In this document: positions 1 to 32,468 of the stretch, in pieces
How positions within the stretch are numbered: position 1 is the stretch's first letter
Layout: each line of letters opens with the position of its first letter
NCBI GenBank assembly: GCA_973895155.1
Contig: OZ316899.1
Location: 4,405,241-4,469,240, forward strand
Length of the DNA: 64,000 nt
Origin: Marsupella aquatica
Taxonomy: Eukaryota > Plantae > Marchantiophyta
Direction: 5' to 3'
Notes under the pieces: generated by a model
The model's input: only the letters and a program-made list of their open reading frames with translations
What the model was told of the DNA's origin: nothing
Databases searched by the model: none
Translations under genes and position numbers: made by a program

Positions 1-3000
1 CGACTCTGAAACTAAAAACCCCCCCCCTTGCCTCTACCGAGGGGTGCACTAAATACTAAGAGCCGAGGAACGGGGTGTCCTCTCGCCGAAGATTCGCTGA
101 CTAAGGTCCTAACTAAGCTGACAGTCAGGCCGGAAAATGGCTGTGTCTTATTAGAAGATCCTAATCTACGCAGGCTGGACAGCAGGGCAGCGCTGCTGTA
201 CCTAAGGCAGGTGCCTGTCCCAAGAGCCTGACTAAGCCAATCCTAATCCTAATCTATTCCTACTCCGCCGCTAATGCCTGGCACGCTTGCCAGAGCCGCC
301 CGAATGGGAGCGGCCATCCCGCTGCCTTCGAAGCCTGTCATTGTCCGCTTTGAGGAGCTGGACCTGGTCCAGCAGAGATTCGTTCTCTCGCCTCGCCGCA
401 TCCGTCTCCTCTGCTGCCTCCTGACATGCCTCCTCCAGCTGCTGGGCGTCGCTCGTCAGTTTACTCGCCAGCTGGTCCTGCTTCTCGGCCTTGGTTTGGA
501 GCCGCGCCATCTCGGCCTGCAGCGTGGCTATCTCCGTCGCGTCCCGCTGGGCTCGCTCCTCGGCCTCCTCCAGGTCTTTCTGCCAGGTGACAGCTTGTTT
601 CTTCAAACTGTCAATCTGGTTCCGGAGTCGTGTAATCTCGGCCTCGTTCCTAGCTTTGGCCTGTTCGGCTAGGGCGGTAAGAGCGTACGCCTTTGCTAAC
701 AACTCATCGGCGGTTGCAACCTTGGGTCGTAGTTGCAGAAGCTCAGCCTCTTGAGCCGCCACTTCGTTCTTTAGGTACACGGACTCCACCCGGTACCGCT
801 CTATCCTCTGAAGGGCCTCCGACTGGGCCCGACCTGCCTTTACGGCGGCAACCAACTCCTGATTGAAGAAACAGGCTACCTTCCGGGCCATGAACTCCCC
901 GGTATCCCGGGCAATTTGATGAGAGAAATCTCCCAGAAGCCCGTTCAGAAATGTACCCTGTACGAAGAGTTCCGGGTGGTCCAAGTTGTGCCTGTCCGGA
1001 TTTGGGCACGGGCAGACATCAACACGCGCAGGGGCCGGGGCAGTGACGTCCAGCCCTGGGGACATAACGTTGGAAGGGGCTGGAGTGTCCTCCTGTAGCG
1101 ATGTCCGGTTCTCCGGAATAACCACCGGCGGGTCCTTGGGAGACCCGGGTTCGGGTAAGACCTCTACCGTACCAACTTCTGTACTTAGCCCGGCTAGTTG
1201 GGTCGCATCAACGGTTGCGACGACCGACCCCTCCGGCGCCTCCTCGGTTATGATTACAGCTATTTGTGGAGGTGGGGTGGGTGAAGCTGGCGTGTCCACT
1301 GGACTTCGGGCCTCGGGTTGGGGCCGTCTCTCCAATGCCGGACAAACCCACCTAGCTGGGACCAGCTTTGTAACGTTGATGCGGGGAAGGGTTCATCGAT
1401 CAAACCGGGCGTACCACTCAAGAATGATTTCGATATGGCTAGCGAAATACGCCTTCCCGCCAATGTACAGCGTCTTCCTTCGCCGCTCCATCTCTTCATG
1501 GAATTTCTTAGCGAAGTACGACGCCCATTTCCTAGGTCGATAGTTCTCGACCTGGATAACCTGGGCGGCGGAGATCTCCCCCCGGGGTTCCATCATGTGG
1601 AGAGCGTACCTCTGGAACTCCAGCCGCTCAGCTATCTCGGGCATGAGGTAGGTCCTCATCACGAACCCGTTGTCTACTGATCCCTCTGAGGGAAAACTTG
1701 AAGATTGGTACTTGGCCCCCTTGCCCCCGGGAGCCCGTGATTCGACTCGATGGTCACCTTCGGGTAACCCAAAGATCATCTTGAGCCGTTCTTCTGTGAG
1801 GGACATATTCCTTCCCCGCAGCCGAGTCTATTGAAGTACGTCGTCATAATTCTTGACGAATTTTGTCATGTCCTCCCCGTAGTACCTGCAAGTGTTCCAG
1901 GGGAGAGAGGGGAGGTGCTCAAATCCCTGAGTCTTCAGGTACACCGCATGCTTGGGATGGAGGATGTTGCTATGAACGTTTTCCCCCATGCGATGCATCG
2001 TCACCTTGGCTACGGCTACCGTGGCCAACGGTAACCCGGATGGAGTGGCGGATTCCTTCCTCTTCTTTCCCCGTGACTGACTCGGGGAAGGTGATACTTC
2101 CCCATCCTCCCGATCGGGCCTGGGGAGTGCCACTGCGGTTGGTAACGGGCCCGGGGCGGCCACGGTCACTATGTTGTCTGCTGGGGCCGCTCCTGGGGTC
2201 AGAGCAGGGGGTGGGGATGATATAGTGTCGGCCCCCCACGCGCTTGTTCCTCTGGGCCGCCTGGTCAAGGGTGGGGTAGCCTCGTCGTCATCGCTAAGAT
2301 CCACAGCGTTGATGACGGAGCGTACCTGTGCTGGCTGGGTGATAGGTGGTGGGGTTTGGCTAGGCTGCGGCTGAGGCTGAAGCTGAAGTTGAGGCTGGGG
2401 TTGCATGGGCACGGGTACGGGTACGGGTACAGGTCCGGCTGAGTTGGTCATGTTGGTTGATGGCCGAGTTCCCATGAAGCTCTGCAGGTGCTGGTAGAAG
2501 TTCTCCGAAGCGAGTGCGGACGCCCTTGTCGAATGGTTGGTACTGGACTCGCCGTTAATGACAGCCCGAACCTGGGCAGGGATGTGGTCGAAGTGATGTC
2601 GCTGCAGGTCGATTGTACCCGGGATATCGAAGACCTCGTCCGGAAGCCGAAGCAATGCTTCCCAGAACCCGATATATTTGTCTCCGTTGAAGAAGTACCC
2701 AGATACCTCATCTGGTCGGTAAAGCTCGCTCTGAGACGGGTAGTCAAAGTTAAGGACGTAGTGGTGTCGTCCTGCTAGGCGGATGGCTCTCTCGTATTCG
2801 CGTTCGATCTCGTATCGACGCGGGTTGGCGTGTTTCAATGAATCGGCCAAGTGCCTTCCGGTAGATAGGAACTGCGTCCAGAATCGAATGGCCAAGCTGG
2901 AGAGGATCGTGTGCGACATTCAGAGGAGATAGTAGTGGCGACCTAGAGAGAATGAGAGAGCTGGGGTCGAAGCTGGCGCGCGGACTGATGGACTGGTGCA

Positions 3001-3385
3001 CTACAAAGGGTTGGCTCCCCTTTTATACTTTGAGGGCTTGTCGATCCCCGACGTCTCCTCGACGCCCATAGGTTGAACCGCTCACGCTTGTGGTGTACCG
3101 GCCACTCCGCCGGTCTGAGTCAGCGTGCGTCAGTGGCCGCTTCCTTAAGTTCGTTATACGGACCCGAGGGAGGGGCCCCTCCATGCTTGTAACCCGGGTG
3201 TGCGAATAGCGACCCGCCGCCAGCCCGAACCTGAAGTCCCCCTTATTGCCTAATGATGTCCTACCCCTAATGATTACCTAAATACTGTCGTTATGCTAAT
3301 AATAGTGGCCTAAGACCCACCTAACGCGCGTGCCGAGCGCAGTTAGACTGAATCACTCATTAACCGCCGTACCGGCGGCGTCACA
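1..3385 (-). mobile_element. 3' LTR of a Gypsy element (giant LTR family A, copy A1), cut off by the window start
   Basis: Minus strand begins TGTGACGCC at 3385, directly after a purine tract and the integrase ORF. It is colinear with the TSD-flanked solo LTR at 18104-22115 (matches about 18104-21485). Confidence 0.9.
271..2919 (-). pseudogene. LTR-encoded accessory gene, 882 codons, two in-frame stops
   Basis: ORFs 1828..2919, 1393..1806 and 271..1335 share one frame. The span is 2649 nt, the same as copy A2, and the stops here are sense codons in A2. TATAAAA at 3021-3027 lies about 100 nt upstream of the ATG. Confidence 0.85.
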
Positions 3386-6300
3386 TAGCTCCCTGCTTAA
3401 TTGTGAAGCGTCCTCGCGAACATCGCTATCGGCGTCGTCATCTTGATGGTGGTACTTTTTTACACGATCGTAGCTGATTCGCGTAGGGAGTAAATCGCCG
3501 GCATACGTCGCAAGCTCCAAAGATCCGTTTCGGTAGATCTGATTGACAAGGAAGGGCCCCAACCACCGGGTATGCAGCTTCCCTGGAAACTGCATGTACC
3601 TACTATCGTACAGAAGGACTAGATCGCCTGCCATGACGTCGACCCTCCGTAGTCCTTTGTCGTGCTGCTTCTTCGAAGTTGCCTGTTTCTTCACGGTGTG
3701 TCGAGCTGCCAGTAGCCGTGCTTCTTCCAAGGCTTCAATCTGATAAGCTCGGTCTGACAGACTTTCAGATTCAGGTAAGCGATCCCGAATGCTGACCCGT
3801 GGAGTGTGCACTTCAAATTCGACGGGCACCAACGAATGTTGGCCGAACACCAGAAAGTATGGGCTGTGACTCGTAGTAGTTTTGTAAGCTAGATTATACG
3901 AGTACACCGCCGCGTACAACTTATCATCCCAATCCGTTTTGTGCGCAGCTACAGTTTTGTTGAGGATCTTCCCAATGATACCATTTGCTCTCTCCGCCAT
4001 CCCGTTGGCTTTAGGATGATATGGGGTAGTCTTGTGGTGCTTGACTAGGTAACGCTCCGTAAGCTGGGCTACGGTGTCATTGAGGAAGTGGGTTCCACGG
4101 TCGCTTACCAATTCTAAGGGCGGTCCGAATCGGGTGAAAATCTGTTCGTATAAGAATCTGGCACTGGTTGCGGCGTCGTCCTTTACCGTAGCCCGCGCTT
4201 CGACCCATTTGGTGGAGTAATCAATAGCTAATAGGATGTACCTGCACCTTCGCCTTCGGGTAACGGGAGTGAACGGTCCGATATAATCAATTCCCCATTT
4301 TTCGAATGGTGCCAATGGAAGCACAGATGTGAGCGGGTGATGATGAGCCCGCCTCGGGGCCCCCGCTCGCTGACACAAGTCACAGCCCTTAATGAAGCGC
4401 TGTACATCCCGATGCAACGTAGGCCACCAATACCCCGAGTCCAGAATCTTTCGGGCTGTCGTAACTGCCGCGAAATGGCCTCCAGCTTCTTCTTCATGCA
4501 GGGCCCGTATCACGATAAGTGTCTCCTTATACTCTAAGCAGCGTCGTAACTTTCCGTTAATACCTTCCTTATGTAGGTGACCCTGTATCATGATGTAAGG
4601 CCCGGCTTTCCGTAAAAACACAGCGGCGGCCTCCTGATTGATGCCGTCAGGGATGCGGCCCGTTAAAAGGAAGGTGATTATTGAGCCGTACCACGTTGGT
4701 GTCCCTTCCCCCACGTGGAACAACTCCTCATCCGGAAAAATATCATCAATTGGCTGATCGACTGGTACGCCGTCCAGTCGTGAAAAGAAATCGGCATTGA
4801 GGTGTACCCTTCCTGGCCGAACCCGAACTTCATAATTAAATTCCTGGAGAAGTAGCACCCACCGGGCTATCCATCCTGTCACATCCGCTTTGTTGACCAT
4901 GTACTTCAGGCTATCATGATCCGTGTGGAAAATGACCTTGTAGCCTAGCAGATAGTGTCGGAACTTTTTACACGAGTAGATTATTCCCAAAGCTTCTCGA
5001 TCAGTGGGGGAATAATTCTTTTCGGCTGCAAATAGTTGACGGCTAGCGAAATAGATGGGGTGATCACGTCCATCCTCATCTAGCTGACTAAGTACGGATC
5101 CGATACAGAACCCTGACACATCGACATACATGTGGAACTCCTTATTCCAGTCTGGGGTGACCATGATAGGCGCGGTGGTGAGTCGTTTACGGAGTTCCTC
5201 AAAAGCAATCCGTCTCCGGGGTGTCTCCTCGACCGCTGCGTCCTTCTTCATCATCTCAGTTAAGGGCAACGCAATTTTAGCAAAGTCTTTAATGAACCGG
5301 CGGTAATACCCTACGCAGCCCAAGAAGGATCGTACTGCTTTTTGATCCAAGGGGAACACCACCGCCATCCAGGCCGCAACTTTCTCTTGGTCCACCTCAA
5401 TGCCCCGTTTGGACACACGATGCCCGAGTAACACCCCCTCCTCTACCCCGAAGAAGCATTTGGCGGGATGTAGTTTGAGGTTAACATCTCGGCATCGTTG
5501 CAACATTCGTCGTAGGTGTTCGGGGTGCATGGCAACGGTTCCGAAGATGGCAAAGTCATCGATAAATATCTCCAAAAATTCCCGTAGGAAATCGTGGAAG
5601 ATATTCATCATAAGGCGCTGAAACATAGCTGGGGCGTTACACAGACCAAAAGGCATCCTCCGAAATGCGAACGTTCCCCACTCCGTAGTGAAAGTTGTTT
5701 TGAGCTGATCCGTGAGACGAATCCAGATTTGGTTATAACCTGAATACCCGTCAAGAAATGTATAGATTTCATTTCGGGCCACCATATCTAGAACCATATC
5801 CGTGAATGGTAATGGGTAATGGTCTTTTCGGGTTGCGTCATTCAGCTTACGGTAGTCCTGACAGATACGAATCTTAGGTTTTCCATCCGTACCTCCCTTC
5901 TTTGGTACAATGACAATGGGAGAGACCCAGTCGCTGGCCATTACCGGGTAAATGATATCGGCGGCGAGGAGACAATCAATTTCCTCCTTCACTAAGATGG
6001 AGTACCTCGGATTCATGCGACATTGTCGCTGTCGTACCGCATGGGCTCCTAGGTTCAGATCGATTGTGTGTTCTCCCAACTCGGGGGAGACGCCTGTTAA
6101 ATCATGATGACTCCATGCAAACACATCTTCATATTCCTTGAGCAAAGCTTGGATGGATTTTTCAGCCTTCCCCGTCAGAGCGTGGCCCAGGTTAAAAGAT
6201 TTGTCCATCCCAATAGTGTACTTCCGGTAGTGCTCCTTCCTGATGACTTCAACCTGGTTTCGCAGACTCGGGTCCAGGCTCGCGTCAAGCTCAGCTAACC

Positions 6301-6694
6301 GAACCCCTCCGTACATGGGTGGGACCGGGATTGGTCTCGGGATGGGGTTTACTTCCTCCAATTGCGGAATGGACGGATCCCATGAGACTCGCTTTTTATG
6401 TCTCGGTCTCGAGTTTTTGGCCTCAGGCGGTTGTTGGGCTGGTTCATGGTTACGAGGCTCTGAAATGGAAGGAGTAGCCTCGGCTCCCTGCTTAGCTGGA
6501 GCCGTGTCCTCCGTCTCGACGAGTTGTTTGTGCGTTTCCTCATCCCCGACAGTAGATGTACTTGGGGTGGACTCAATGGCAGCCCTCGGGTAATTTAGGA
6601 GATGTGTTTCTCGGGTTGCTTCAACTCCGAAGACATCTTCCTCGGATAGGGACGAGATGAGTTCGATCATATTGAGTTCCTCTTCCTCCGAGGT
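3353..6694 (-). CDS. pol: Ty3/Gypsy pol remnant (RT-RNaseH-integrase), non-chromovirus Athila/OTA-like
   Basis: RT motifs QDYRKLN, LDGYSGYNQI, MPFGLCNAP, IFIDDF. RNase H motifs VDVSG, TDHDSL. HHCC zinc finger (GGHF..CDLCQR). DDE core (WGIDYIGP, SDRGTHF, AERAN) and WLGPF. The gag/protease end is replaced by LINE sequence. Confidence 0.95.
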   Translation of the reverse strand, partial: TSEEEELNMIELISSLSEEDVFGVEATRETHLLNYPRAAIESTPSTSTVGDEETHKQLVETEDTAPAKQGAEATPSISEPRNHEPAQQPPEAKNSRPRHKKRVSWDPSIPQLEEVNPIPRPIPVPPMYGGVRLAELDASLDPSLRNQVEVIRKEHYRKYTIGMDKSFNLGHALTGKAEKSIQALLKEYEDVFAWSHHDLTGVSPELGEHTIDLNLGAHAVRQRQCRMNPRYSILVKEEIDCLLAADIIYPVMASDWVSPIVIVPKKGGTDGKPKIRICQDYRKLNDATRKDHYPLPFTDMVLDMVARNEIYTFLDGYSGYNQIWIRLTDQLKTTFTTEWGTFAFRRMPFGLCNAPAMFQRLMMNIFHDFLREFLEIFIDDFAIFGTVAMHPEHLRRMLQRCRDVNLKLHPAKCFFGVEEGVLLGHRVSKRGIEVDQEKVAAWMAVVFPLDQKAVRSFLGCVGYYRRFIKDFAKIALPLTEMMKKDAAVEETPRRRIAFEELRKRLTTAPIMVTPDWNKEFHMYVDVSGFCIGSVLSQLDEDGRDHPIYFASRQLFAAEKNYSPTDREALGIIYSCKKFRHYLLGYKVIFHTDHDSLKYMVNKADVTGWIARWVLLLQEFNYEVRVRPGRVHLNADFFSRLDGVPVDQPIDDIFPDEELFHVGEGTPTWYGSIITFLLTGRIPDGINQEAAAVFLRKAGPYIMIQGHLHKEGINGKLRRCLEYKETLIVIRALHEEEAGGHFAAVTTARKILDSGYWWPTLHRDVQRFIKGCDLCQRAGAPRRAHHHPLTSVLPLAPFEKWGIDYIGPFTPVTRRRRCRYILLAIDYSTKWVEARATVKDDAATSARFLYEQIFTRFGPPLELVSDRGTHFLNDTVAQLTERYLVKHHKTTPYHPKANGMAERANGIIGKILNKTVAAHKTDWDDKLYAAVYSYNLAYKTTTSHSPYFLVFGQHSLVPVEFEVHTPRVSIRDRLPESESLSDRAYQIEALEEARLLAARHTVKKQATSKKQHDKGLRRVDVMAGDLVLLYDSRYMQFPGKLHTRWLGPFLVNQIYRNGSLELATYAGDLLPTRISYDRVKKYHHQDDDADSDVREDASQLSRELCDAAGTAVNE
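3386..3399 (-). other. Polypurine tract (AAGCAGGGAGCTA) abutting the 3' LTR
   Basis: Purine-rich run immediately 5' of the LTR TG on the minus strand, at the end of integrase. Confidence 0.6.
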
Positions 6695-8400
6695 CTCCAC
6701 TCTGTCAAAGGCCTTCTCAAAATCCAGTTTCAAGAAAAGAGCCGGGGTCCTAGTGAAGTTAATCCAGTCTTTAACCAGCCAGGTGAGAGATATTTTCCAG
6801 AATGTGCCGCCCAGGGATAAAGCCTGTCTGTTGTGGACAGATCAGCCTAGGTAGTAACATTTTTAGACGAAGGGTTAGCAGCTTAGCCAAGAGCTTGTAC
6901 ACAATAGTTAATGCTCTCCAGTCCCCCAGTCTTCGCTTATCAGTTTTCTTAGGAATAAAACGAATAACCCCATCTTTGATGTTGAAAGCAAGATGTCCTG
7001 TCCTCCAGAAATCACAGATCATGTCATGAAAGTCAGTCTTCATGAATTCCCAGCAAGCCCTGAAGGTCTCTGCAGTCATGCCATCAATACCAGGAGCTTT
7101 GTCACTAGGAAGAAGTAACAAAGTGTCGTGCAATTCACGTAGAGAAGGCAGCTCTTCAAGCATTCTAACCTCAGCCGCAGTAGGGGAAAAATGTGTGTTC
7201 CTACTCAGAGTGCCGCGTGCTGTTCTCTGCTTCCTCAATTCTTCTCCTTCCAGTAATGGCGGTGAGTACAGCTCCACACAAAAACGTTGTACCTCTCCAA
7301 CAATGAGTCGCTCCTCCCTTAATTCCGTGCCACCATCAACCACAAGATATTCCATCTTTTCTCTGAGCCATTTGGCCTTAATAGTGGAGAAATAGAACTT
7401 AGAGGGTTCGTCGCCTTGGCCCAGCCATTTAATCCTAGATAGCCGGCGACAGTGGTGAGCATCTTCAAGTTCCATTGAACGTACATTATCTTCAGTATCC
7501 ATAAACTCTGTGATACTGTCAGTGGAGTAGTCCTCCATAATGGTTACCTTCAGAAGTCGAAGTTTGTCACGCAGTAGTGCAGCCTCTGCAGCCTTGGGCA
7601 GTGGTGAAGATTGTAGCGTCATGTAGCATTGGCAGAGACGCTGATACGCCAAAGAAAAGCGCAGATGAGGTTCAGCAAGGGGAGCGGTATCCCCAATCCA
7701 GGCAGCCTCTAGAAGTCCCAAGTTTGCAGAGTTCCTCACCACAGCAGGGTTAGCTTTGAAGTAAGAAGTGCATCGTTGATCAGAAGCAGACGTGAGCAAG
7801 GGGGCAATGCGGAAAGAGATCAGCACAGGATCATGGTCCGATAGTGCCGATGTGCCATCATGTTTGAGTTCCACCAGTTCCTCTGTCCACTGGCCTTTCT
7901 CACTAAAATAGAACCTATCAAGGCGGGATTGAGTCAACACGCCGTTACGAATCCGGCACCAGGTAAACCTGGATCCCGATACCTGACCAAGAATAGAAAG
8001 TGCATCTTGCAGGTCAAGTCGAACCTTCAGAAACCTCCAGAATTCCAATTCCCTCCCGTGGATCAACGGGGTCAAGCCAGTGGAATCACATCGGAGCTCA
8101 GTCATGTTAAAATCTCCAGTGAACACCCATCGACCTTGAGGCAATTCATTTTTCAAATCATTCCAGAGAATTGCTCATTCTCCTGGAGAGTTGGGCGCGT
8201 ACACACTGATCAGCCCAAAGGTTCCCTCGGCGTGTTCCAGCTGGGCCCAAACAGCTCTGCCCAGGTCCAGCGTACCTGATGACAGTACCTTAAGTGACGG
8301 GTGCAGTAAAATAGCTGTGCCTCCCCTGCCGTCAACGGGGGCCGAGTAAAAATGTTGATAACCCTAAAATGCTTCTCAATCTTAAATACTGGTGCAATCA
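6695..8400 (-). pseudogene. L1-like LINE ORF2 fragment (APE endonuclease plus start of RT), 3'-truncated
   Basis: SVYAP, GDFN, SRLDRFY, SDHDPV, DKAPGIDG, WRALT, QQTGFIPGR, KLDFEKAFDRV. The sequence stops abruptly after DRVE. Confidence 0.9.
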
Positions 8401-9479
8401 ACTACAACTCACATAACGTTTGCAAAAAGACACACACACTTCCACTCGGGCTTCAATTTTTTTGAAGTATTTACCATCGCATAGTCTTTGCTAATCACGT
8501 ACATTCAATTTGTGACATTGTTTTACATCACAAAGAGCGATATTGTGGGCCTCAGAAGTTTTGGAACCTTTTGTGTTGGGAGGGTCACAGCCTCAAAGTA
8601 TCACAATAAGCAGACATTTTGGAATTGCAAGTTATGAAGGTAATTGACTCCAAAACTGTGAAGTCTTGAGGTTATGTATTGTGAAATGGGAAGGTGTTCT
8701 TAAGGGGTTTGCAACATTATGACCACACAAGATTCAATACATTATTTGCAAGGGTTTTTACTCGGGACCCAATGTGGAAGGCAAAACTAAAATAGGAAAG
8801 CATGAACAAAATTGTAAGGCTTCAAAGAATCCTATACATGTACAAGAGAGGGGGGGCATATCTGATGCCAAATCCGCCCTTCTAAACCTAAGTTATCTCT
8901 TTCTACCCTAAGCTCTGGCATGACGAGTCACTCTCATGCATGTATTGCTACAAAATAACTGGAATGGGCTCTTTTTGCTCCTCTTGGTTGGCTTCTTGCC
9001 CATCAGAGCCAAGGGATCCTGTTGGTGATGGGTCTGTGGTGCTTGTTGGCGCTCCTACTGCTCCTGTTGCTCCTCTGGCTCCTCCTACTCATCCCCTTTG
9101 TCCTCAAGGTCCTCCTCCTCCCCTTGGTCATGATCAACCTGTGCTGATGGCACACGACTACCACCACTACCATGATGGGAAGAACCTACCTCATGACTAC
9201 TCTCCCCCCGAGCATGACTAGTAGGAGGAGTAGCCCCCTCATCCTCATCACTACTGCTCACATCAACACCCAACCCCTTCGGCTCATCCAAATCCTACAT
9301 CCATTACATATGATAAGTTTCTGCAAAACATAAAGGGTCACAATGTTTGCATGCTAATTAAATGGTTCACACTTAGATACTTATAGTAGGCAAACTCTAC
9401 ATTGAGATTTAGATCTAGACTGGTCCCTAGTACGCTCCGTTGATCTGCCTCTAACCACTAAGGTAGCAGACTCATCATC

Positions 9480-10080
9480 ACTAGTAGAGAGATGTTGCTT
9501 GCTCCATTATGCAAGAACGATAGACTTCATCGCATCCAACTTTAATGTAGTCTTGTCATGTCTAATGACCATTACCAATGTCAGAAAGCTCTTTGGAAGC
9601 GACATCAACAAATGCATTGCAAGGTACTCATTGGTCAACTTATCTCCCGCCGTGGTCACCTCATGCACAATCTCATCAAAGAGATTGAGGTGATCACTCA
9701 TGTTGCCACCATCCTCAAGTTCAACCTGAACAGCCGCTCCAACTGGTAAATACAAGTAGTCAACAAAGTACTCTAGTGTACTGAGTAAGCGTATCCCATA
9801 TCTTCTTGGCGTTCCAATCCATCCCCAACACGTTCTTGAGAGTGTTTTTTCAAGAACAACTAAATTGTACTACATGCCTCCATCAACATGTCTTCCCACT
9901 CCTCATTTGTTAGAGTTGAGGGCTTCACTCAGATAGTGATTGTCTTTTCAAGACCCTGCTGGATCAACATGTTAGTCACCTTCCAAGTCCACAGGCTAAA
10001 GTTGACCTTCCTTTCAAAGTAACTTCTCCACCTCAAACTTTGGCGCTACAAGCTTTTGTGAAGTCATGGATGTTGCCACA
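9480..10080 (-). pseudogene. gag: Copia (Tnt1/Tork-like) gag remnant
   Basis: KFEVEK start near 10050 and UBN2-like SDHLNLFDEIV..LLMSLPKSFLTLV. Broken by stops and frameshifts, with no pol downstream. Confidence 0.75.
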
Positions 10081-11267
10081 AACACACAGGAAACACAAAT
10101 ACCAAAATACCTCCACACAAAAATCACCAAAAATTAAAGTTTGTGGAAGTGGAAATTAAAATCACCTCCGTGTAGCTTGCAAGGTAAGATTTCCAAAACA
10201 CCAAGCGACTTTGCAAACATACATTTGAGCTAGGAGTTATTATTTGTTTAGTGCAAGGGTTAAAACATTGTTTTGGAACCCTTGAGAGAATCTTTTAAAG
10301 AAAAACTTCCACAGACCTTTGTTTTCTAAACCAATTTTCAGGCCCCTTCCCTACTCCCTTGGGAACACTTGTGCAAAAGAATCTTGGAAAACAAAACTTG
10401 TTTGCACTTTTGAATCACAAAAATAGTACCAAAAATGGTACCATAACACAAAACTGTTCACATTTTTACACAGCTCTCGTGTAGAGGGTGCGCTCTACAC
10501 AACCCTTGTGTAGAAAAAAGGTCTTTGTCACCTTGAGAAAGATTATTCAGGCCATTTGTCCAAGCCCTATTTGGCAGAACAGACCAAAACTTCTACGCGA
10601 GACACCTCAAGGTAAAATGCACGTAAACCTGTTTGTCCATATCTTTTTGGCCCAAAAAGTCAAGGTCCTACACGAGCCTTGTGTAGAAAAACATCCTCCG
10701 CAATGTGCACCGCTTCTTTCATATCACAAATGGCAGGAACTTTGATCAAACATAACTCCGTAACCGGACCTTTGTTTGATCTCCACTTTACATCATTGGA
10801 ATGAGAACAACAAAAGCTATATCATAACCAGTCTTCCAAAGTTAATACCAAACTTTGATTTCTGCCCTAATCCGATTCAACACAACCGCATCATGCAGCT
10901 CACGGCTATGGCTACCACCAAAAAACTTTTGCTTTTCTAGCCCAGTGTTGCCTCAATCAACATTGCTCCACACTTGTTTGATGAAAAAGCAATGAGATAT
11001 CCACCAAAATATAGTGTGCATTGATGTGCACAAGAAAGTGTAGGATTATTCACCTAATAGTACCTTTAGAAACACATTGACACATACAATACTTCCATTG
11101 AAGTTTTAGTCGGGAAATTGTCACCTATTCCAATTCAAAACCTCCAACGCATAATGACCAGTGACACAATCATATACTCATCAACAACAATCCAATCTGT
11201 CACCCCCCCCGATTTGACACAAAGAATACTCTCACCATTGTCCACGCAACCAAATGTCAAACACAAA

Positions 11268-11579
11268 GCTCTGATACCACTTGTAAGAAACCATTGGCTC
11301 CGGACTTAAGAGCAATGCTGAACATGATGAGAGCAGTCACTCAATCTCACACTACACCACCATAACACCACAATGAAGAAACTTCTAAAGGATCCATAGC
11401 TCATGAGAAAGTAATGTGAAGAATGAGGGAGAGAGTGCTCTCCCTCCAACCTATACCCCCCAAGGGGGCAAGATGTGTGGGCCTAATCTAAGTGGATCTT
11501 ATCCTGCTATAATCCAGGGTTAACTAAACCCTAGTAAGGCCAAACTAACTAATCCGGGAACTTGAGTCAATGCCTAACA
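11268..11579 (-). mobile_element. Copia 5' LTR (11282-11579, TG...CA) with tRNA-iMet PBS (11268-11279)
   Basis: Plus-strand GCTCTGATACCA reads TGGTATCAGAGC on minus, 2 nt from the LTR end. It is followed by a 1.2 kb leader and gag. Confidence 0.8.
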
Positions 11580-12536
11580 TCTTATACGTCTTATCACTTG
11601 ATATATACATGTTACATTGCTCTATGGTAGGTATCTAACCGCCTGATAACGGATATGAGAAATTTATGTTTAACATCATTGATGATGGATATGAGAATTG
11701 TCATTATTTCTTGATAAGTAACATAGTCTGAAACATTCTTAAAATGAATACGTTATTTGTGAGATAAGGATGTTTATGAAGGAAGGGTTAACTAGCCATA
11801 AATTTTTGAATTTTTAAGTTTAAGATCTCAAATGAGGCTAAAGAGGGACCTGAAGACTACTATGAAGTGTTATGAGACTTTCAAGCCCATCTGAGGTCAA
11901 CCCGGATTGATATTAGAGAAGGAGGATCAACCCGGAACTTTTTGTTATAAACCTGGAATGAGATATAAAGCTTATACCGAGACTCTACTCAACAACAGCT
12001 GTCCATTGCCAAAGTTTTTAAAACCATAAGTCAAACACAGGCACGACCACAGCAGAATCCGGATATAAGAAAGGAGAGTCGATCCGGCCTCTCACACCTC
12101 TCAAAGCCGAACTTAGTAGGTTTTGAGTTCCCGAGCGCATTAGGCTGTTAAAGCAGTAGAGTGAGGAGGCTCTACCCTTTTGGTAGAGGATCTTGGGTCC
12201 GGATTATAGGACCAATCTTGAATTTCTTGATGAGAGCCTGGATATGAGGGTACTGACTGATTCGTTGTGAGGGGAATGCCTACTCCGCCGCTGGGAGTGA
12301 AGGCAGGAAGTTTGAGATTCTGATCGTGCCTACATTGGTGATGAGAACGAAGGCCAGGTCGATCCAAACATCCACATTTCAGGCCCGTTTGAGTCTATCT
12401 TTGCCCCACGTTCGATGCACCTGAATTTGGATTGACGGGATCTTGATCAACGTTTCCAGAAGCTCTTGTCAGTTGATCAGAAACGCCGTAGCCAGGTAGA
12501 CCCGGACATTTCTACCATTAGTCAACACCGAAGAGA

Positions 12537-14369
12537 TTGACCATTCTGAAGTCGCAGCATTGTAGAGCTCGCCGACGAGGAGGCAGGCCATTTATTTGGA
12601 ATCCATTTTCTGCTTCGATAAGTCCTATGGAGCAAGGGACGGATCCAGCCGGAATGTCCACTTCTCGCGTCTCTAAGGGGCATTCAACCTCAACATCACC
12701 TGCACCTACTCCGGTTAAAGCCCCTGTGAGACGATCGAAGAGAAAGGAGGTCCCTATTGCCATGAAAATTCTGAGACCAGCTATTCCGGACAGTGAAGCT
12801 GAGAAGGTCAAACTGAGGGAGTCTTTGCTCAGGATGGGCTGTGAGTCTCTGATGGAGCTACCTTGGAGTTATCAGAGTGAAGATATGATCAGAGAGATCC
12901 GATCTAAGGAGTATCCGGCTGAGTTTAAGGATACCTCCAGAGGCCGACCTGAGCGATGGACTCAGATGATGATTGCAGGAGCTTTTGTATTGGAAGATGA
13001 AGGAGAAGGTCCAGTGGGGAGAGCTGTCAACCTAATCCTTCCTTACTTCAAAGGAGCCATCAACAGTAAGGACGGGTTCAATGTTTCTAAGTGTTTGGAT
13101 CCTGATCTGAGACGAGTCTTCAGCTTTCTGCTACCCCTGCTTTACCCTGAGAAGCCAAGAAGAGTTACTGTTGGAGTTGGCTCTACCATTGTTGCTGCTT
13201 ACAAGGGAGAAAGAAAAGTCAACTGGGCTAAGCTTATCTTTGATTTGATAAGGAAGTTGGTACAGAACCTATCCAACAAGAGTCCTACTCCCCTCTCCTG
13301 CTACCTGGTACATCTATATAGCTTTGAAGGAGTTTTGTTCAGAGAGGAGAAGAAATTACTATTGGCCAAGTACAACTTCATCAAGTATGGAGAGACAGAT
13401 CCAGATATCACCCAGGCCACCTCTGATGACAGTGAGGATGAGGAACCAGCAGAGACAAATCCTCGAAAGACCCGGTCTGCTGCCCGGAACCTCGACCCGG
13501 ACTTTTCCGACCCGGCCTTCGTCGACCCGGCTGAATGTCCGGATGCACCCGGCCATGCCTCCCAAGACACCCTAGCTGATTTCCAGATCATCTCAGACAC
13601 ATTCCAGAAGGTGAAGAGGAAGACCACTGTGATGGAGAAGGTCATCACCGACATTTCGCAGAAGCTAGGAGTGAAACCAGGGCAGATTCTTGAGAAGATC
13701 TCCACCATGAGTGATGCTACAGATAAGAAGAAGTTGGAGAAGGAGAATGAGTTCCTCAAGAAGAAGGTATCTGAACTCAAACAGCAGTTGGAAAGGAGTA
13801 AGAAGAAGAATGAGCTTGAGCATACTCTCCAACTCAGTATCACTCAATCTTTGGATCTGATTGAGCCTTTGACTAAGATAGCTTCTCTGGATCTTCTTAA
13901 GGCCCAAATTTATGATGAGTATTTGGCCAAGAACACCACACCCATCCTTTTCTCCAAGATTAACCATTTAGTGGTAGATGTGAGTACCAAGGTGGATGAT
14001 GCACTTACAGGCCTCTCAAAGACCTATGAAGCCTTAAGGGAGATGAGTGACTTGACTACAGAGGAGCTATTAGCTGATACTGAGATTCCTCCCTTTACTA
14101 CCAGATATTTCTCTCCTAGTCCTCATGAAGGAGTCTATTCCACTGGCCCCTCATCACCCCTCAACCCTCCTGGTTTCCCCACTCCCAGTACACACTTCCA
14201 CTCCCATTCTTACACCTATTCTCATGACCCAAGTGCCCATCAGGAGAACATGGACATTGACCCGTCCATCCCTTTTACCACTGGCCAGCAAGGAGTTTTC
14301 CTTCGACCAGAACCCCTTGCCATGGCTAACCCTGAGGAGGTTCCTTCCCAAAAGCTAGGACCAGAATAG
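12537..14369 (+). CDS. Intact 610-aa TE accessory ORF (family E): conserved LPW...NW domain plus coiled coil
   Basis: Open frame with no stops. Clear similarity to 37882..38766 (ELPW/SIPW, RGRPERW/RADPEKW, NSKDGF..KC/NSKAGW..KC, FLLPLLYP/FLVPIFHP, VNW, PTPLSCYL/PTHLSVYL). TATAAA near 11965. Element ends not resolved. Confidence 0.75.
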   Translation: MTILKSQHCRARRRGGRPFIWNPFSASISPMEQGTDPAGMSTSRVSKGHSTSTSPAPTPVKAPVRRSKRKEVPIAMKILRPAIPDSEAEKVKLRESLLRMGCESLMELPWSYQSEDMIREIRSKEYPAEFKDTSRGRPERWTQMMIAGAFVLEDEGEGPVGRAVNLILPYFKGAINSKDGFNVSKCLDPDLRRVFSFLLPLLYPEKPRRVTVGVGSTIVAAYKGERKVNWAKLIFDLIRKLVQNLSNKSPTPLSCYLVHLYSFEGVLFREEKKLLLAKYNFIKYGETDPDITQATSDDSEDEEPAETNPRKTRSAARNLDPDFSDPAFVDPAECPDAPGHASQDTLADFQIISDTFQKVKRKTTVMEKVITDISQKLGVKPGQILEKISTMSDATDKKKLEKENEFLKKKVSELKQQLERSKKKNELEHTLQLSITQSLDLIEPLTKIASLDLLKAQIYDEYLAKNTTPILFSKINHLVVDVSTKVDDALTGLSKTYEALREMSDLTTEELLADTEIPPFTTRYFSPSPHEGVYSTGPSSPLNPPGFPTPSTHFHSHSYTYSHDPSAHQENMDIDPSIPFTTGQQGVFLRPEPLAMANPEEVPSQKLGPE

Positions 14370-15539: not shown

Positions 15540-17620
15540 CCTACATGCATCAAAAACCCTTCAAGGGGGTGTGGGACATGATACTAGTCCATGTCCAAGC
15601 ATTAGTTTGGACACAAAAAACAATTCCATAAGCCATGATGCAACTTTGGAGTGATTTGCCAAAAGGGCTACCATGGAGTGAACCACCTCTCCCAAACCCA
15701 AATCATATTGTTTCTTCTCTTCAAAAGAGGTGGTGTGACACCAATGGATGGAAATTGAGGTGGGGGTTGTCCATCGCTTGCTTAGGTGATATTTGTGGGG
15801 GTGTTCCAAAGAGGAATATCCCTTTTATCCAAGGAATCTACTATGGTCTCTCTTTTGATGCCTTGAGTTGGCTTTGGGTCATTTAGGAGCAGGTGTACAA
15901 TCATAAGTGCCAATGACCAAAATTGGAGTCATTGTGGTAACTGTCATTTATGGGGTTATTAATTCTACCAAATGACCACTTTGGTAGTCAATCAAGTGGT
16001 CACTGTGTTAGTCATCACGGACCGCCAAAAATGACTGTGTGACCCCCTACTCTAGAGGTGGGCCCAAGAGTCTAGGAGACCCCTCCATGCATCAAAACCC
16101 CCTTCACTGGGGTGCGGGACACAACACTTATCCATGTCTTGGCACCAATTCTCTTAGAAATATTTTTTAGCCAAGTTGTTGCATTTACCTAAGCCAAGAT
16201 TTCCCAAAAGTGTCATCGTGGAGGGATGTCCCCTCCTCCAAAGCCAAACGAAACCATTTCTTCTCTCCAGAGGAGGTGGTGGAACACCAATGGATGAGGA
16301 TTGTCCTCGTCCTTGCTTGGGTGATGTTTATGGGGATACACTATCACTTGCATCACCAACAAAGTACTCAATCTCAGCCATGCTCTTGGTAATCAGAATC
16401 ACCTCTGATGACTTCTTCTTAGGACAAATGTCCTTATGATGGCCCGATTTGTAGCAATACAAACACCATAATGATGCATCATCAACAGGAACCTTCTTCT
16501 TAGGTTTCCCCTTGGCAAGTAACAACTTCAGTTGCTCTAAGTTGATCAGGAGGTGCCTTGCTGCCTGCCTCCTTTGATTTGGTCTTTACAAGTGGTTTAT
16601 CTTTTTTCTTGGATTTTTTTGTCTTCATCACCTCCTCACTTGAGTCCGAGGAAGGATCACTCTCACTATTCTCGCTATTTGAGGACTTGCTTCACTCTTT
16701 GTCTTCTTGGAATGCTTCTTCTTCTTATCACCTTTCTTCTTCTTACCCGCTTCATCATCAGACAATGACTCCTCTAATTTGTACTGCTTCTTTTTGCTTG
16801 TAACATCCGCATTGATATATAAATGAACATCATGCATTGCCTCAGATAAGGAATCTAGGCTTGACTTGCAAATTGCAAAAGTCATTTTTTGCGGTAAAGT
16901 GTTGACCAACCATTGCAGTTGCATTTCCACAGACGCATTGGTCTTGGTACGGCGTACCAACTTGTTGAAATGTTATAAGAATTTTTTAAAATTAATTATT
17001 TGTTTTCTCAAAACTAAAGACACCAAGCTTCAGCATAGCTAACTCTGCCGCTCCAATTGGCCTGGACTCCTTCACAAACAAAGCTTTGAAAGTATCCTAG
17101 TTTGATTGTTGTGTCGGAGTCAACCCATTGAACCAGGGTCTTGCTTCACCCTTAAACATGCCTGGCAGACTCTACAACTTGATCGCCAATTCTCCATTTG
17201 CGGAGGCAATAACTTCAAAGTCATCTAACCACTCATCACGATCTTCCTCCGGTTTCCCGTGGAATTTCTTATAGTAAATGTGTGACCTTTGCGTCAATTT
17301 GGCCGTTTGGCAACCAGCTGCATGTCCTTCCTGATCACCCATTCTCCTTCCAAGAAGAGTAGCTTGAGTATGCGGTGTAGCTTCAACCGGGTCCACGCCC
17401 ACCTCCTTCCCTGCAAAAAGAACAAGAGCAACACTTGTGCTACTCTCACTAACAACCACTAGTAGTACTGTTTCTTTGTCCTAGCCGTCAATGCTACAAA
17501 CCCTTTTGTCTCTCAATTGAGCTATCCTATCTCTAGGAGTAACTCTGCTCATTCCCAAACTAGGCTATACCTTGAACACCATCAACTAACCAAAGAGACC
17601 CCCTCATCTAGCACCAAAAA
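15540..17620 (-). pseudogene. gag: Degenerate Gypsy gag with CCHC zinc knuckle and a diverged internal duplication
   Basis: KFHGKPEEDRDEWLDDFE gag N-terminus and CLYCYKSGHHKDIC knuckle. 15540-15800 is repeated at about 16085-16330. Confidence 0.7.
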
Positions 17621-18103
17621 TGTGGTGCAATTCCCTTAGCAAACTCAAAGAAAACACCAAGAATAGACCTCTTCCAGTCGAAATTGGGCTGATCTACTAT
17701 GGATTAAGCAATTGGGAATAGCACTTTTACGTACATTTATCTCAAAGATTCTTTGGTTTGGGGTTTAAAGATAGCACTCACACTTACTACTCTTATATCC
17801 TTTGCATTGGTATGTTTGGATTCTGCCATCGGAATATACCCAGTCGGCTTGATAACTCAAAACCGTTTGAGAGATTCTTTAAAATGCGTACACACTCAAC
17901 CCAACAACCAGCTCCTTGTCTTACAAGTGAATTGAATGGGCAAATTCTAATCACAACCTAGATGCAACACACAACAAGAACTTAGGTAACCTCTATACTG
18001 ACTGAAGCCGACTCTAGTAAAGCACTCAACCACGTACACAATACTTCATGCACACACTCTACGAGCTAAGCTTTGCAATCAACTCAGTTTAGAGAGTATA
18101 AAG
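17621..18103 (-). mobile_element. 5' LTR remnant of the degenerate Gypsy, interrupted by solo LTR A2
   Basis: Minus strand ends ...GCACCACA followed by TTTTTGGTGCTAG (PBS-like TGG) upstream of gag. The other end probably lies just after 22120. Confidence 0.5.
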
Positions 18104-18461
18104 TGTGACGCCACCGGTACGGCGGTTAATGAGTGATTCGGTCTAACTGCGCTTAGCACGCGCGTTAGGAGTGTCTTAGGCCGCTATTATTAGCATAACA
18201 ACAGTATTTAGGTAATCATTATGGATAGGACATCATTAGGCAATAAGGGGGAATTCAGGTTCGGACTGGCGGCGGGTCGCTATTCGCACACCCGGGTTAC
18301 GAGCGTGGAGGGGCCCCTCCCTCGGGTCCGTATAACGTACTTAAGAAGCGGCCACTAACACGCGCTGACTCAGACCGGCGGAGTGGCCGGTACACCACAA
18401 GCGTGAGCGGTTCAGCCTATGGGCATCGAGGAGACGTCGGGGGATCGACAAGCCCTCAAGG

Positions 18462-18468
18462 TATAAAA
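18462..18468 (+). promoter_or_regulatory. TATA box of the LTR-encoded gene
   Basis: TATAAAA about 100-110 nt before the ATG. The same spacing occurs in A1 (3021-3027), B1 (about 28648) and B2 (about 39853). Confidence 0.6.
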
Positions 18469-18569
18469 GGGGAGCCAACCCTTTGTAGTGCACCAGTCCA
18501 TCAGTCCACGCGCCAGCTTCGACCCCAGCTCTCTCGTTCGCTCTAAGTCGCCACTACTATCTCCTCTGA

Positions 18570-21218
18570 ATGTCGCACACGATCCTCTCCAGCTTGGCCA
18601 TTCGATTCTGGACGCAGTTCCTATCTACCGGAAGGCACTTGGCCGACTCATTAAAACACGCCAACCCGCGCCGATACGAAATCGAACGCGAGTACGAGAG
18701 AGCCATCCGTCTAGCAGGACGACACCACTACATCCTTAACTTTGACTACCCGTCTCAGAGCGAGCTTTACCGACCAGCAAAAGTATCTGGGTACTTCTTC
18801 AACGGAGACAAATATATTGGTTTCTGGGAAGCATTGCTTCGGCTTCCGGACGAGGTCTTCAATATCCCGGGTACGATCGACTTGCAACGACATCACTTCG
18901 ACCACATCCCTGCTCAGGTTCGGGCTATCATCAATAGCGAGTCCAGCACTACCCGTTCAACAAGGTCGTCTACACTCGCTTCGGAGAACTTCTACCAGCA
19001 CCTACAGAGCTTCATGGGAACTCGGCCATCAACCAACATGACCAACTCAGTCGAACCCGTACCCGTACCCGTACCCATGCAACCTCAGGCTCAGGCTCAG
19101 CTTCAGCTTCAGCCTTAGCCGCAGCCTAGCCAAACCCCACCACCGATCGCCCAACCAGCACAAGTACGCTCCATCATCAACGTCGTGGATCTTAGCGATG
19201 ACGACGAGGCTACCCCACCCTTGACCAGGCGGCCCAGAGGAACAAGCGCTCAGGGGGCCGACACTATATCGTCCCCACCCCTTGCTCTGACCCCAGGAGC
19301 GGCCCCGACAGACAACATGGTGACCATGGCCGCCCCGGGCCCGTTACTAACGGCAGTGGCACTACCCAGGCCCGATCGGGAGGATGGGGAAGTGTCACCT
19401 TCCCCAAGCTAATCACGGGGGAAGAAGAGGAAGGAATCCACCACTGCATCCGGGTTACCGTTGGCCACGGTAGCCGTAGCCAAGGTGACGATGCACCGCA
19501 TGGGGGAAAACGTTCACAAAAACATCCTCCATCCCAAGCATGCGGTGTACCTGAAGACTCAAGGATTCGAGCACCTCGCCTCCCTCCCCTGGAACACTTG
19601 CAGGTACTACGGGGAGGACATGACGGAGTTCATCAGGAATTATGACAACGCGCGTCAACATACTCGGCTGCGGGGAAGGAGTATGTCCCTCACGGAAGAA
19701 CGGCTCAGGATGATCTTTGGGTTACCCGAAGGTGACCATCAAGTCGAATCACGGGCTCCCGGGGGCAAGGGAGCCAAGTACCAATCTTCAAGTTTTCCCT
19801 CAGAGGGAGCAGTGGACAACGGGTTCGTGATGAAGACCTGCCTCATCCCCGAGATAGCTGAGCGACTGGAGTTCCAGAGGTACGCCCTCCACATGATGGA
19901 ACCCCAGGGGGAGATCTTCGCCGCCCAAGTTATCCAGGTTGAGAACTATCGACCTAGGAAGTGGGCGTCGTACTTCGCTAAGAAATTCCATGAAGAGATG
20001 GAGCGGCGAAGGAAGATGCTGTACATTGGCGGGAAGGCGTATTTTGCTAGCCACATCGAGATCATTCTTGAGTGGTACGCCCGGTTTGATCGACAAACCC
20101 TTCCCCGTGTCAACGTTACAAAGCTGGTCCCAGCTAGGTGGGTTTTCCCGGCCTTGGAGAGACGGCCCCAACCCGAGGCCCGAAGTCCAGCGGACACGCC
20201 AGCTTCACCCACCCCACCTCCACAAGTAGCTGTAGTCGTAACCGAGGAGGTACCGGATGGGTCGGTTGTCACAACCGTTGATGCAACCCAACAAGCCGAG
20301 CTAAGTACAGAAGTCGGTACGGCGGAGGTCTTACCCGAGCCCGGGTCTCCCAAAGACCCACCGGTGGCTATTCCGGAGAACCGGACATTGCTGCAGGAGG
20401 ACACTCCAGCCCCTTCCAATGTTACGTCCCCAGGGCTGGACGTCACTGCCCCGGCCCCCGCGCGTGTTGACGTCTGCCCGTGCCCAACTCCGGACAGGCA
20501 CAACCTGGACCACCCGGAACTCTTCGTACCGGGTACATTTCTGAACGGGCTTCTGGGAGATTTCTCTCATCAAATTGCCCGGGATACCGGGGAGTTCATG
20601 GCCCGGAAGGTAGCCTGTTTCTTCAATCAGGAGTTGGTTGCCGCAGTAAAGGCAGGTCGGGCCCAGTCAGAGGCCCTTCAGAGGATAGAGCGGTACCGGG
20701 TGGAGTCCGTGTACCTAAAGAACAAAGTTGCGGCTCAAGAGGCTGAGCTTCTGCAACTACGACCCAAGGTTGCAGCCGCCGATGAGTTGTTAGCAAAGGC
20801 GCACGCTCTTACCGCCCTAGCCGAACAGGCCAAAGCTGGGAACAAGGCCGAGATTACACGACTCCAGAACCAGATTGACAGTTTGAAGAATCAAACCGTC
20901 ACCTGGCAGAAAGACCTGGAGGAGGCCGAGGAACGGGCCCAACGGGACACGGCGGAGATAGCCACGCTGCAGGCTGAGGTGGCGCGGCTCCAAACCGAGG
21001 CCGAGAAGCAGGACCAGCTGGCGGGTAAACTGACAAGCGACGCCCAGCAGCTGGAGGAGGCATGTCAGGAGACAGTAGAGGAGACGGACGCGGCGAGGCG
21101 AGAGAACGAATCTCTGCTGGACCAGGTCCAGCTCCTCAAGGCGGACAATGACAAGCTTCGAAGGCAGCGGGATGGCCGCTCCCATTCGGGCGGCTCTGGC
21201 AAGCGTGCCAGGCATTAG
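18570..21218 (+). pseudogene. LTR-encoded accessory gene, 882 codons, in-frame stops at 19116 and 19410
   Basis: ORFs 18570..19118, 19185..19412 and 19461..21218 are in one frame. Both stops are Gln codons in copy A1. Layout: N-terminal domain, Pro/Gln linker, LPW...IFGLP...KW domain, Pro linker, coiled coil, basic tail KRARH. Confidence 0.85.
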
Positions 21219-22230
21219 CAGCGGAGTAGGAATAGATTAGGATTAGGACTAGCTTAGTCAGGCTCTTGGGACAGGCACCTGCCTTAGGTACAGCAGCGCT
21301 GCCATGCTGTCTAGCCTGCGTAGATTAGGATCTTCTAATAAGACACAGCCGTTTTCCGGCCTGACTGTCAGCTTAGTTAGGACCTTAGTCAACGAATCTT
21401 TGGTGAGAGGACACCCCGTCCCTCGTCCCTTAGTATTTAGTGCACCCCTCGGTAGAGGCAGGGGGGGTTTTTAGTTGCAGAGCTGGACGTCCGCAGTATG
21501 TGCGGGGAGTCCTGACCTCTGGGAATGAAAGAGTACCAAGGGGAGGGGGTAGGACTAAGCTCGCCGGGCGAGTGCGGAGCCGGGCTCCGTTGTAGTGTGC
21601 ACCCTCGGCCTTGAACCTGTTCATTCCGGGGCTGTCGGGTCAACTAAGTGTACGCATATGTTCCCTTTGTAGTAAAATCCTTTCCCATCATTTTCCTTCG
21701 TGTAAATCGAGATTGTATGCATGTGCGCGTGTATGTGTGTGGGTTTCTCGTATATGGGTGGCAGCGCCAGGCCGAACACACTACCCGAGACGTGCACAGG
21801 GTGCAGCCTGCGGGTAAGTGGTTGCGAGCCCGGGTTGAGGACCTGTATCATCGAATCCGGATCGAAGGCGGACAGCACGAAGGCTTAGAAGCCCTTAAGC
21901 CGGGGTCGATCCTGCTATCGACTAAGGTACGTTCCGGCGGCGGAACACAAACCATACCTAGGAGGTGTCCGTATTTAGCAGTATGCGCACTTAGCGCTAG
22001 TTTACGAGAATAAGGTGCATTACGTGCTTCCCTTCCTGCCCGAACCCTCAGATTTACGAGGGATGTGCCCGTCTAAGCTGAAGTCTGAGTTAAGGCTGCA
22101 GCCGACGACGTGACATAAAGGTATTCCATGTTGCAAGCAAATAGGAGATTTTGATAGCAAGGAGAATTTTATGAGTGAGACACTAATGGTTTCAAATTTC
22201 ATTTGCTTTTTGGTGCCTTTAATACTTTTG

Positions 22231-32250: not shown

Positions 32251-32468
32251 GAGTACTCCAATGGAACTGAGATTGCTCGATCCTAATAAGGATACCTTCA
32301 AGAAGAGCACAGAAGCAGAGCCAACACTTGGACCGAAAAAGCCATACCTTTCAGCAATCGGGGCTCTAGTGTACCTCGCAAACCAAACACGCCCCAACAT
32401 CTCATTTGCTGTCAATCTTCTAGCAGAGCACAGTTCACAACCAACCAAAAGATATTGGAATGGCATAT

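Follow-up and report, generated by a model that had tools for sequence, protein, structure and literature searches.

An 882-codon accessory gene within the probable giant long terminal repeats of a Gypsy retrotransposon lineage

The 64,000-nt stretch of contig OZ316899.1 analysed here (the window) contains units of 4-4.7 kb that are very probably the long terminal repeats (LTRs) of a Gypsy retrotransposon lineage, and all units in the window have a homologous open reading frame (ORF) at the same place. Self-comparison of the window identified four related copies (A to D), A and B being about 68-70% identical to C and D at the DNA level. Two further units, E and F, are separate families, with core domains 42% and 27% identical to that of B, which makes three families in all. 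The units and the sequences adjoining them are the following, the label LTR being used in the sense just given:

18104..22115, +: unit B, a solo LTR of 4012 nt with TG...CA ends and target-site duplication (TSD) TAAAG, nested in the LTR of element X
18570..21218, +: ORF of unit B, 882 codons, with stops at codons 183 and 281
1..3385, -: unit A, a 3' LTR copy clipped by the window edge, the final 630 nt lying beyond the window
271..2919, -: ORF of unit A, 882 codons, with stops at codons 364 and 509
28292..32250, +: unit C, a solo LTR of 3959 nt, TSD GAGTA, nested in a Copia reverse transcriptase (RT)
39496..42969, +: unit D, a solo LTR, TSD ACTGT/ACTGC, first letters TC
32469..37150, +: unit F, a solo LTR of a distant family, 4682 nt, TSD CATAT, in the same Copia RT as C
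58152..61318, +: unit E, a 5'-truncated unit of a third family, terminating in GACA
3386..3415, -: pre-LTR motif and purine tract, common to other families in public runs
3386..6695, -: Gypsy pol remnant with RT, ribonuclease H (RNase H) and integrase; nearest named relatives in Calypogeia fissa
6696..8330, -: endonuclease/RT fragment of a long interspersed nuclear element (LINE), in place of the 5' portion of element A; its outer boundary is approximate
17600..18098, -: 3' part of the LTR of element X, homologous to the final 510 nt of F, then a sequence like a primer-binding site (PBS), TGGTGCTAGATGAGG
16802..17342, -: gag of element X, decayed; the gag of P0062 is a relative

Identification of the units as LTRs

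Unit B has the TG...CA ends, the perfect TAAAG duplication and the lack of gag/pol similarity that the original prediction had reported, all of which were borne out by re-examination. Ends and TSDs are perfect in three of the four complete units (B, C and F); D has a TC start and a TSD matching at four of five positions. The pairing of C and D as the LTRs of one element was ruled out, each having its own TSD. No terminal direct repeat was detected inside B (best self-matches of 11-19 nt, E 0.34). The layout of a terminal-repeat retrotransposon in miniature or of a large retrotransposon derivative was also looked for, and the first 800 nt gave no above-chance match to the last 1000 nt in any of the four units.

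Copy A, 93.6% identical to B over 3383 nt, is the sequence that had been noticed behind integrase and a polypurine tract at 3385. It begins directly after ...GAGGACGCTTCACAATTAAGCAGGGAGCTA, downstream of the RT-RNase H-integrase frame. The stretch before it has the form GAGGAC...TTAAG-purine, and the tract is modest, with 10 nt including one C. The 37 nt preceding the LTR (3386-3422, minus strand) are common to several families in the public runs, in which the LTR starts and integrase ends differ. The pol frame of A continues for 33 nt into the LTR until a stop (3353-3385, minus strand).

Of eight public runs listed, four, from three studies, supplied the contigs that were aligned to B and to the junction of A. 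The summed contig depth over the unit is orders of magnitude higher than over the left flank; this excess is that of a high-copy repeat and is not a copy number. The loose ends at 3385 are heterogeneous, with an agreement of 0.45 in run X1 (9 contigs) and 0.41 in run X4 (17 contigs), which fits an element boundary that adjoins many different flanks. One contig of run X1 spans the junction (3320-3424) with 13 differences in 105 nt, indicating that other copies share it. In seven contigs of run X2, the pre-LTR motif recurs and leads into an F-type unit at its start.

The opposite end is seen in element X. The end of its LTR aligns with the last 510 nt of F up to the common GCACCACA (Z 22 relative to 200 shuffles); behind it come TTTTTGGTGCTAGATGAGG and the decayed gag. 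As to a possible short LTR of X that lacks the ORF, the upstream piece of X gives a weak local match to F (Z 5) and a poor global alignment, and it resembles an abutting Copia LTR. The tRNA scan returned no genes to which the PBS-like sequence could be matched. A start behind a purine tract in A, together with a homologous end before a PBS-like sequence and gag in X, leads to the LTR reading. This is in agreement with the original prediction, as are the solo copies with 5-bp TSDs and the purine-tract junction in other copies.

Two observations weigh against this assignment. The LTR-PBS junction of the A/B family was not found among the 24 loose ends listed of 1338, and no single element with a giant LTR at both ends was seen; A itself is interrupted, its pol running into the LINE fragment at about 6695, so that the window lacks its gag and 5' LTR. 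In a metagenome scan, pol matched 11 loci, all of them distant, and neither the core domain (best iE 0.034) nor a pair of LTRs was found at any of them. The lack of an element with two giant LTRs, the fact that the majority of window copies stand alone and a core fold known from a DNA transposon protein would also suit a separate mobile element with a single gene, either a DNA transposon or an integrase-mobilised cassette, that landed behind the integrase gene. This explanation is highly improbable, because divergent copies and at least the F family have the identical pre-LTR motif at the exact junction, and because F has a 3' end homologous to that of an LTR with a PBS-like sequence and gag behind it. 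Mutator-like elements (MULEs) have long inverted repeats and 9-bp duplications, unlike the TG...CA ends and 5-bp TSDs observed here, and a Pfam scan found no transposase domain.

The gene and its predicted protein

The 2649-nt frame is present in both A and B with zero indels between the two, and its stops, as originally predicted, are not shared. In C, the ORF begins at 28755 and is disrupted by stops plus a frameshift; in F (about 32845-36244), one frameshift and two stops are found; in D, the end of the ORF was lost through a 475-nt deletion. The 3' part of E is homologous to that of B. Three regions can be distinguished in the protein of B:

18570..18944, +: N-terminal helical domain of about 125 aa, kept in C, D, F and the Calypogeia proteins; predicted local distance difference test (pLDDT) score 85
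19485..20123, +: core domain of 213 aa, unbroken in B, with a predicted VANC21 fold (DUF1985/PMD type)
20640..21215, +: C-terminal coiled coil with basic tail KRARH, a likely nuclear localisation signal (predicted)

A proline-rich linker connects the helical N-terminus to the core, and a second linker leads from the core to the coiled coil and the KRARH tail. There is no transmembrane segment, and the protein is thus not env-like.

The ratio of nonsynonymous to synonymous substitutions (dN/dS), a comparison that the original prediction had proposed as a check, points to purifying selection. Over the whole ORF, the pairwise values are 0.31 for A/B, 0.29 for C/D and 0.19-0.21 between the subfamilies, so that all six pairs among A to D fall within 0.19-0.31, with bootstrap upper limits of 0.23-0.41. 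In the core (codons 296-505), the ratio is 0.07-0.08 in the four between-subfamily pairs. Of the 175 differences between A and B, 91 are at third positions, and the indels of C and D, counted before the deletion in D, are net in-frame except at one place. At the first stop of B, all the aligned depth of the four runs has another letter, which makes this stop private to copy B. Differences between B and the runs inside the ORF fall at third positions in 11 of 15 cases (best 40 of 511 rows). A 906-aa relative in a public assembly is unbroken and can be aligned over its whole length, basic tail included, at 28% identity. These patterns mark the ORF as a real gene that purifying selection has maintained, and the selection they record is best ascribed to the past of active full-length lineages.

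All six window copies of the ORF are nevertheless broken, which counts against a working gene and would fit a passenger, a captured gene fragment drifting neutrally inside the LTR. Such a passenger is extremely improbable in view of the dN/dS values, lowest in the core, the mostly net in-frame indels, the absence of the first stop of B from the contigs of four runs, and the same architecture in the unbroken relative. For the active lineage, neutrality is refuted by dN/dS; it may hold for copies after their insertion.

A profile search with the core gave 377 relatives at E <=0.001. Ten of the 20 ORF relatives looked up are Calypogeia fissa proteins. Word-seeded protein searches gave no match for the ORF over the length ranges 485-1544 and 1309-3735, and searches of the viral and prokaryote collections gave no relative. 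For the N-terminal domain, no usable ESM Atlas match and no fold match were obtained (best Z 5.6), from which a new fold does not follow.

The core was modelled with a pLDDT of 95. Foldseek ranked VANC21 first (E 0.14, TM 0.51), and VIA-align placed 198-200 of the 213 residues on VANC21 (9lnj/9lnk), with Z 8.3 in the Foldseek set and Z 8.0 in the wide search. VANC21 was the only chain at Z >=5 among 48,161 PDB chains, the next reaching Z 2.3. In the ESM Atlas, PMD and DUF1985 clusters were found at 0.88-0.89, leads under the 0.9 mark. The PDB sequence search with the core alignment returned low-complexity matches only, and the viral fold library no real match (best TM 0.23). The core is predicted to share the VANC/PMD-type fold, a statement about fold and not function. 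PMD and DUF1985 are themselves described as having a common fold (bioRxiv 2024.09.27.615353; PMC13547354).

LTR layout and possible function

Two rows describe the non-coding parts of B:

18462..18468, +: TATA box, TATAAAA, the sole exact TATAWAW in the non-coding parts of B
21219..22115, +: 3' non-coding part of about 900 nt, with a TTAG-rich stretch, a TGTA/TGTG cluster (about 380-525 nt from the end) and a hairpin element at 21932

The TATAAAA lies 106-108 nt ahead of the ATG in B, C and D, with no intervening ATG, and is also present in A. Its position in B (108 nt before the ATG) is that of the original prediction, which had placed a TATA box about 100 nt upstream. The 3'-UTR-like region noted then is equally recognisable in the 900 nt downstream, where the TGTA/TGTG cluster, at 360-525 nt from the 3' end, is what we infer to be poly(A)-signal-like. 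The 3' parts of units B to F are all without an exact TATA box. Between B and C, the 3' 900 nt are 85% identical against 70% for the 5' part, with a synonymous divergence (dS) of 1.2.

An element of the form TTCC..GGAA..ATACC is found at 21932, 32067, 36887, 42786 and 61120 on the plus strand and at 17834 on the minus strand. It sits 180-265 nt from the 3' end in six of six LTR ends, in families that are otherwise little alike. This element is possibly an RNA hairpin for packaging or priming, but a structure is not claimed, since the six sequences show two-sided changes in 2 of 11 pairs. Ahead of it, B, C and D have a splice-donor-like AG/GTA(C/T)GT.

Short words with a TTAG core are the most enriched ones in the non-coding parts of B, C, E and F (family-wise p 0.01-0.04; 15 tests, five regions by three word lengths). 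CTTAG occurs 14 times in B against 3.8 expected, AGTTAG seven times in E against 0.8, and TTAGG 11 times in F against 3.5. No enrichment of the TTAG type was found in the flanking pieces of X. These words are a lead to a candidate target-motif signal.

Concerning the layout, we lean slightly towards an ORF within a very long R region. The LTR would then consist of a U3 of about 390 nt, an R of 3.2 kb with the ORF, and a U5 of about 400 nt, and expression of gag-pol would require read-through and splicing, or internal initiation. Placing the ORF in U3 with its own promoter, the genomic RNA starting from a TATA-less promoter in the last 600 nt, is somewhat less probable. In that case, a former internal 3' accessory gene would have been captured as the purine tract moved upstream, and the element would be spared an 882-codon ORF before gag. 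A purine run, GGGGAGGGGG, is indeed found at about 21540 in B and C, 570 nt from the end, but it has no following TG and is not kept in E. The higher conservation of the last 900 nt, compared with both the synonymous sites and the 5' part, speaks for a U3 placement and yet fits either layout. The accessory gene of Grande is described as having its own promoter (PMC11963269; PMC7264820). Against U3 stand the lack of an exact TATA box in the 3' parts and the TGTA/TGTG cluster, which resembles a poly(A) region more. The two placements differ in layout, not necessarily in function, and they overlap.

For the function, our best explanation, held with a little more confidence than doubt, is that the LTR-borne accessory gene, with its predicted VANC21-like core, encodes a nuclear sequence-specific chromatin factor that guards its own LTRs from silencing. 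The TATA box upstream and the TGTA/TGTG cluster downstream would make each LTR a transcription unit. The protein would oligomerise via the coiled coil and bind short TTAG-type motifs flanking its own ORF. As reverse transcription copies the LTR as a unit, gene and target sites would be inherited together and doubled in each cycle. VANC proteins are reported to bind short motifs in the non-coding parts of their own transposon and to remove silencing (PMC5735166). PMD-A ORFs are present in angiosperm Gypsy elements, their function being given as unknown (PMC5418596).

Several findings weigh against an anti-silencing role. The identity between the core and VANC21 is 12%, with a root-mean-square deviation of 3.9-4.0 A, and Z 8 is the edge of the range that VIA-align calls ambiguous. 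Neither B nor the 87 aligned members gave a Pfam match to PMD, DUF1985 or DUF287, and Transposase_32 was found weakly in two of the 87 (best E 0.006). The motif enrichment is modest and not cleanly family-specific (CTTAG occurs 11 times in F, TTAGG nine times in B). The host PMD proteins MAIN and MAIL1 act in silencing and also against Polycomb silencing (bioRxiv 2024.09.27.615353; PMC5418596), so that the fold alone would be compatible with an effect in either direction. The same LTR-borne gene might instead serve the retrotransposition cycle, tethering the integration complex to chromatin or exporting or packaging the long genomic RNA. We consider this role unlikely, though far from negligible: the element lacks a chromodomain by Pfam scan, several units are nested in retroelements (B in X, and both C and F in a single Copia), and the proteins of Gypsy PMD-A, TRP28 and Athila ORFs are presented as being without proven function, with nuclear and regulatory roles proposed (PMC5418596; PMC7264820). 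However, nesting is expected anyway in a repeat-dense region, the one structure that matches is that of a DNA-bound anti-silencing factor with sequence specificity, and the TTAG-type words are enriched in the non-coding parts of the LTR itself.

The anti-silencing explanation has a bolder form, which we advance tentatively: a liverwort Gypsy would have moved a VANC-like anti-silencing gene and its target motifs into the LTR, each LTR, young solos included, being self-activating and de-repressing the family in trans. If true, this would be a retrotransposon counterpart of VANDAL-VANC outside the flowering plants, and the anti-silencing use of the PMD/DUF1985 fold would date back to early land plants.

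One part of the original prediction was not supported, namely a multiplication of the gene once the element has been lost. With PBS, polypurine tract, gag and pol all lacking, a solo LTR cannot, by known mechanism, retrotranspose. Its formation turns two gene copies into one, and the window copies are broken. As the solo LTR keeps the promoter, the ORF and the 3' region, young solo copies may be expressed; the remaining gene could be active for a time and would then decay. The four further units (C, D, E and F) and the predicted VANC/PMD-type core fold go beyond what had been noted before.

Lineage, known systems and neighbouring elements

The pol of A contains neither a chromodomain nor a second RNase H by Pfam scan, its one RNase H lying between RT and integrase. 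The extra archaeal-type RNase H in pol that marks Tat/Ogre/Retand elements is thus not present in A, and by its domain content and the relatives of its RT the element is a non-chromovirus Gypsy. Among the 120 pol relatives listed, the best named ones are from Calypogeia fissa (64-65% identity) and Riccia sorocarpa (<=56%); P0062 is the database protein closest to the RT of A, at 72%. A tree was built from 98 rows over RT-RNase H (A and 97 hits, 23 too-short hits being excluded, no REXdb references). In this tree, A clusters with two Calypogeia proteins and P0062 (support of 100 in the Shimodaira-Hasegawa-like approximate likelihood ratio test, SH-aLRT), apart from the angiosperm hits. On this placement and the Calypogeia relatives, the Gypsy lineage with giant LTRs likely belongs to the liverworts, and its host is likely a leafy liverwort.

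VANC of the Arabidopsis VANDAL MULEs is comparable in its fold (predicted for our core, Z 8.0-8.3), in being an element-encoded accessory protein with a coiled coil, and in the short repeated motifs in the non-coding parts of the element, for which the evidence in the LTR units is weak. It differs in that our gene sits in a Gypsy LTR, likely of a liverwort, and in that the protein, at its low identity and without a DUF1985/DUF287 Pfam match, has an extra N-terminal domain; nor were tandem arrays seen, no test having been aimed at them. VANC is described as MULE-encoded and dicot-specific (PMC13547354).

The PMD ORF of Ogre, TRP28 of Retand, ORF-1 of Athila and gene23 of Grande are likewise conserved extra ORFs of non-chromovirus Gypsy elements, in the PMD structural neighbourhood. 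Such ORFs often carry an SMC-like coiled coil (PMC6317226; PMC11963269; PMC7264820), are described as internal, located upstream of gag or else after pol and before the 3' LTR (PMC7264820; PMC6317226), and belong to a group with LTRs of up to about 5 kb (PMC6317226). In contrast, the ORF described here takes up two thirds of the LTR, which would give each element two copies of it, and is retained in the solo LTRs, and its lineage groups with liverwort, not angiosperm, sequences. The host PMD-C proteins MAIN, MAIL1 and MAIL2 belong to the same structural neighbourhood (bioRxiv 2024.09.27.615353; PMC13547354). Like the role proposed here, they act at short DNA motifs near promoters; unlike our gene, they are angiosperm host genes with no comparable LTR context, and our protein has no Pfam PMD match. 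Phygy, a moss non-chromovirus clade, is also a bryophyte Gypsy without chromodomain or extra RNase H. Its published description gives short elements, no extra ORFs and an NCGN target preference (PMC6317226), unlike the 4-4.7 kb LTR with its ORF and the TSDs TAAAG, GAGTA, ACTGT/C and CATAT, none of which is NCGN.

The giant-LTR gene is a real feature that extends the accessory-ORF Gypsy elements and is unusual in its location. Accessory ORFs within or overlapping the LTR are known from mouse mammary tumour virus (sag) and from human and simian immunodeficiency viruses (nef), animal retroviruses with much shorter U3 ORFs, whose proteins are unrelated to ours. A full-text literature search, mostly at title level and with subscription journals largely outside its coverage, gave no plant retrotransposon with a whole gene inside the LTR. 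The accessible portions of PMC12885004 and PMC7466625 make no mention of such elements.

The layout breaks the working rule that LTRs are non-coding. Pipelines that seek extra ORFs only between the LTRs would miss an LTR-internal gene, and gene predictors call such copies host genes, as with the Calypogeia proteins (judged by their sequence and not by genomic context). The role of the extra ORFs of plant Gypsy elements is still open (PMC7264820). The LTR ORF provides a structural link to a characterised anti-silencing protein beside candidate target motifs in a 4-kb unit, which makes the question of function directly testable in a transformable liverwort. It also bears on the origin of the PMD/VANC domain, from retrotransposons or from host genes, a point left open by Ikeda et al. 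(PMC5418596).

Two other ORFs of the window, G (12522-14369, plus strand) and H (37870-38766, plus strand), encode a distant version of the same core domain, with a mutual identity of 30%. Both are close to Calypogeia proteins and neither lies within a recognisable giant LTR; G is antisense to the gag of X. Internal forms of the core-domain gene may thus coexist with the LTR-borne form. The in-frame fusion between the LINE fragment and the Gypsy pol of A is more likely a deletion junction than a genuine fusion gene.

A decayed Copia element at 24800-37400 (plus strand) retains gag, integrase, RT and RNase H, and the solo LTRs C and F are independent insertions in its RT, separated by about 220 nt. 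The end of another Copia LTR lies at 9400-11650 (minus strand), with a decayed gag and the PBS TGGTATCAGAGC, which we take to be of the tRNA-Met type. Finally, an ORF at 53238-54215 (minus strand) without Pfam match ends in the motif EQWITSEILDAYF, presumably resembling the Ulp1 protease, and is probably a DNA transposon remnant.

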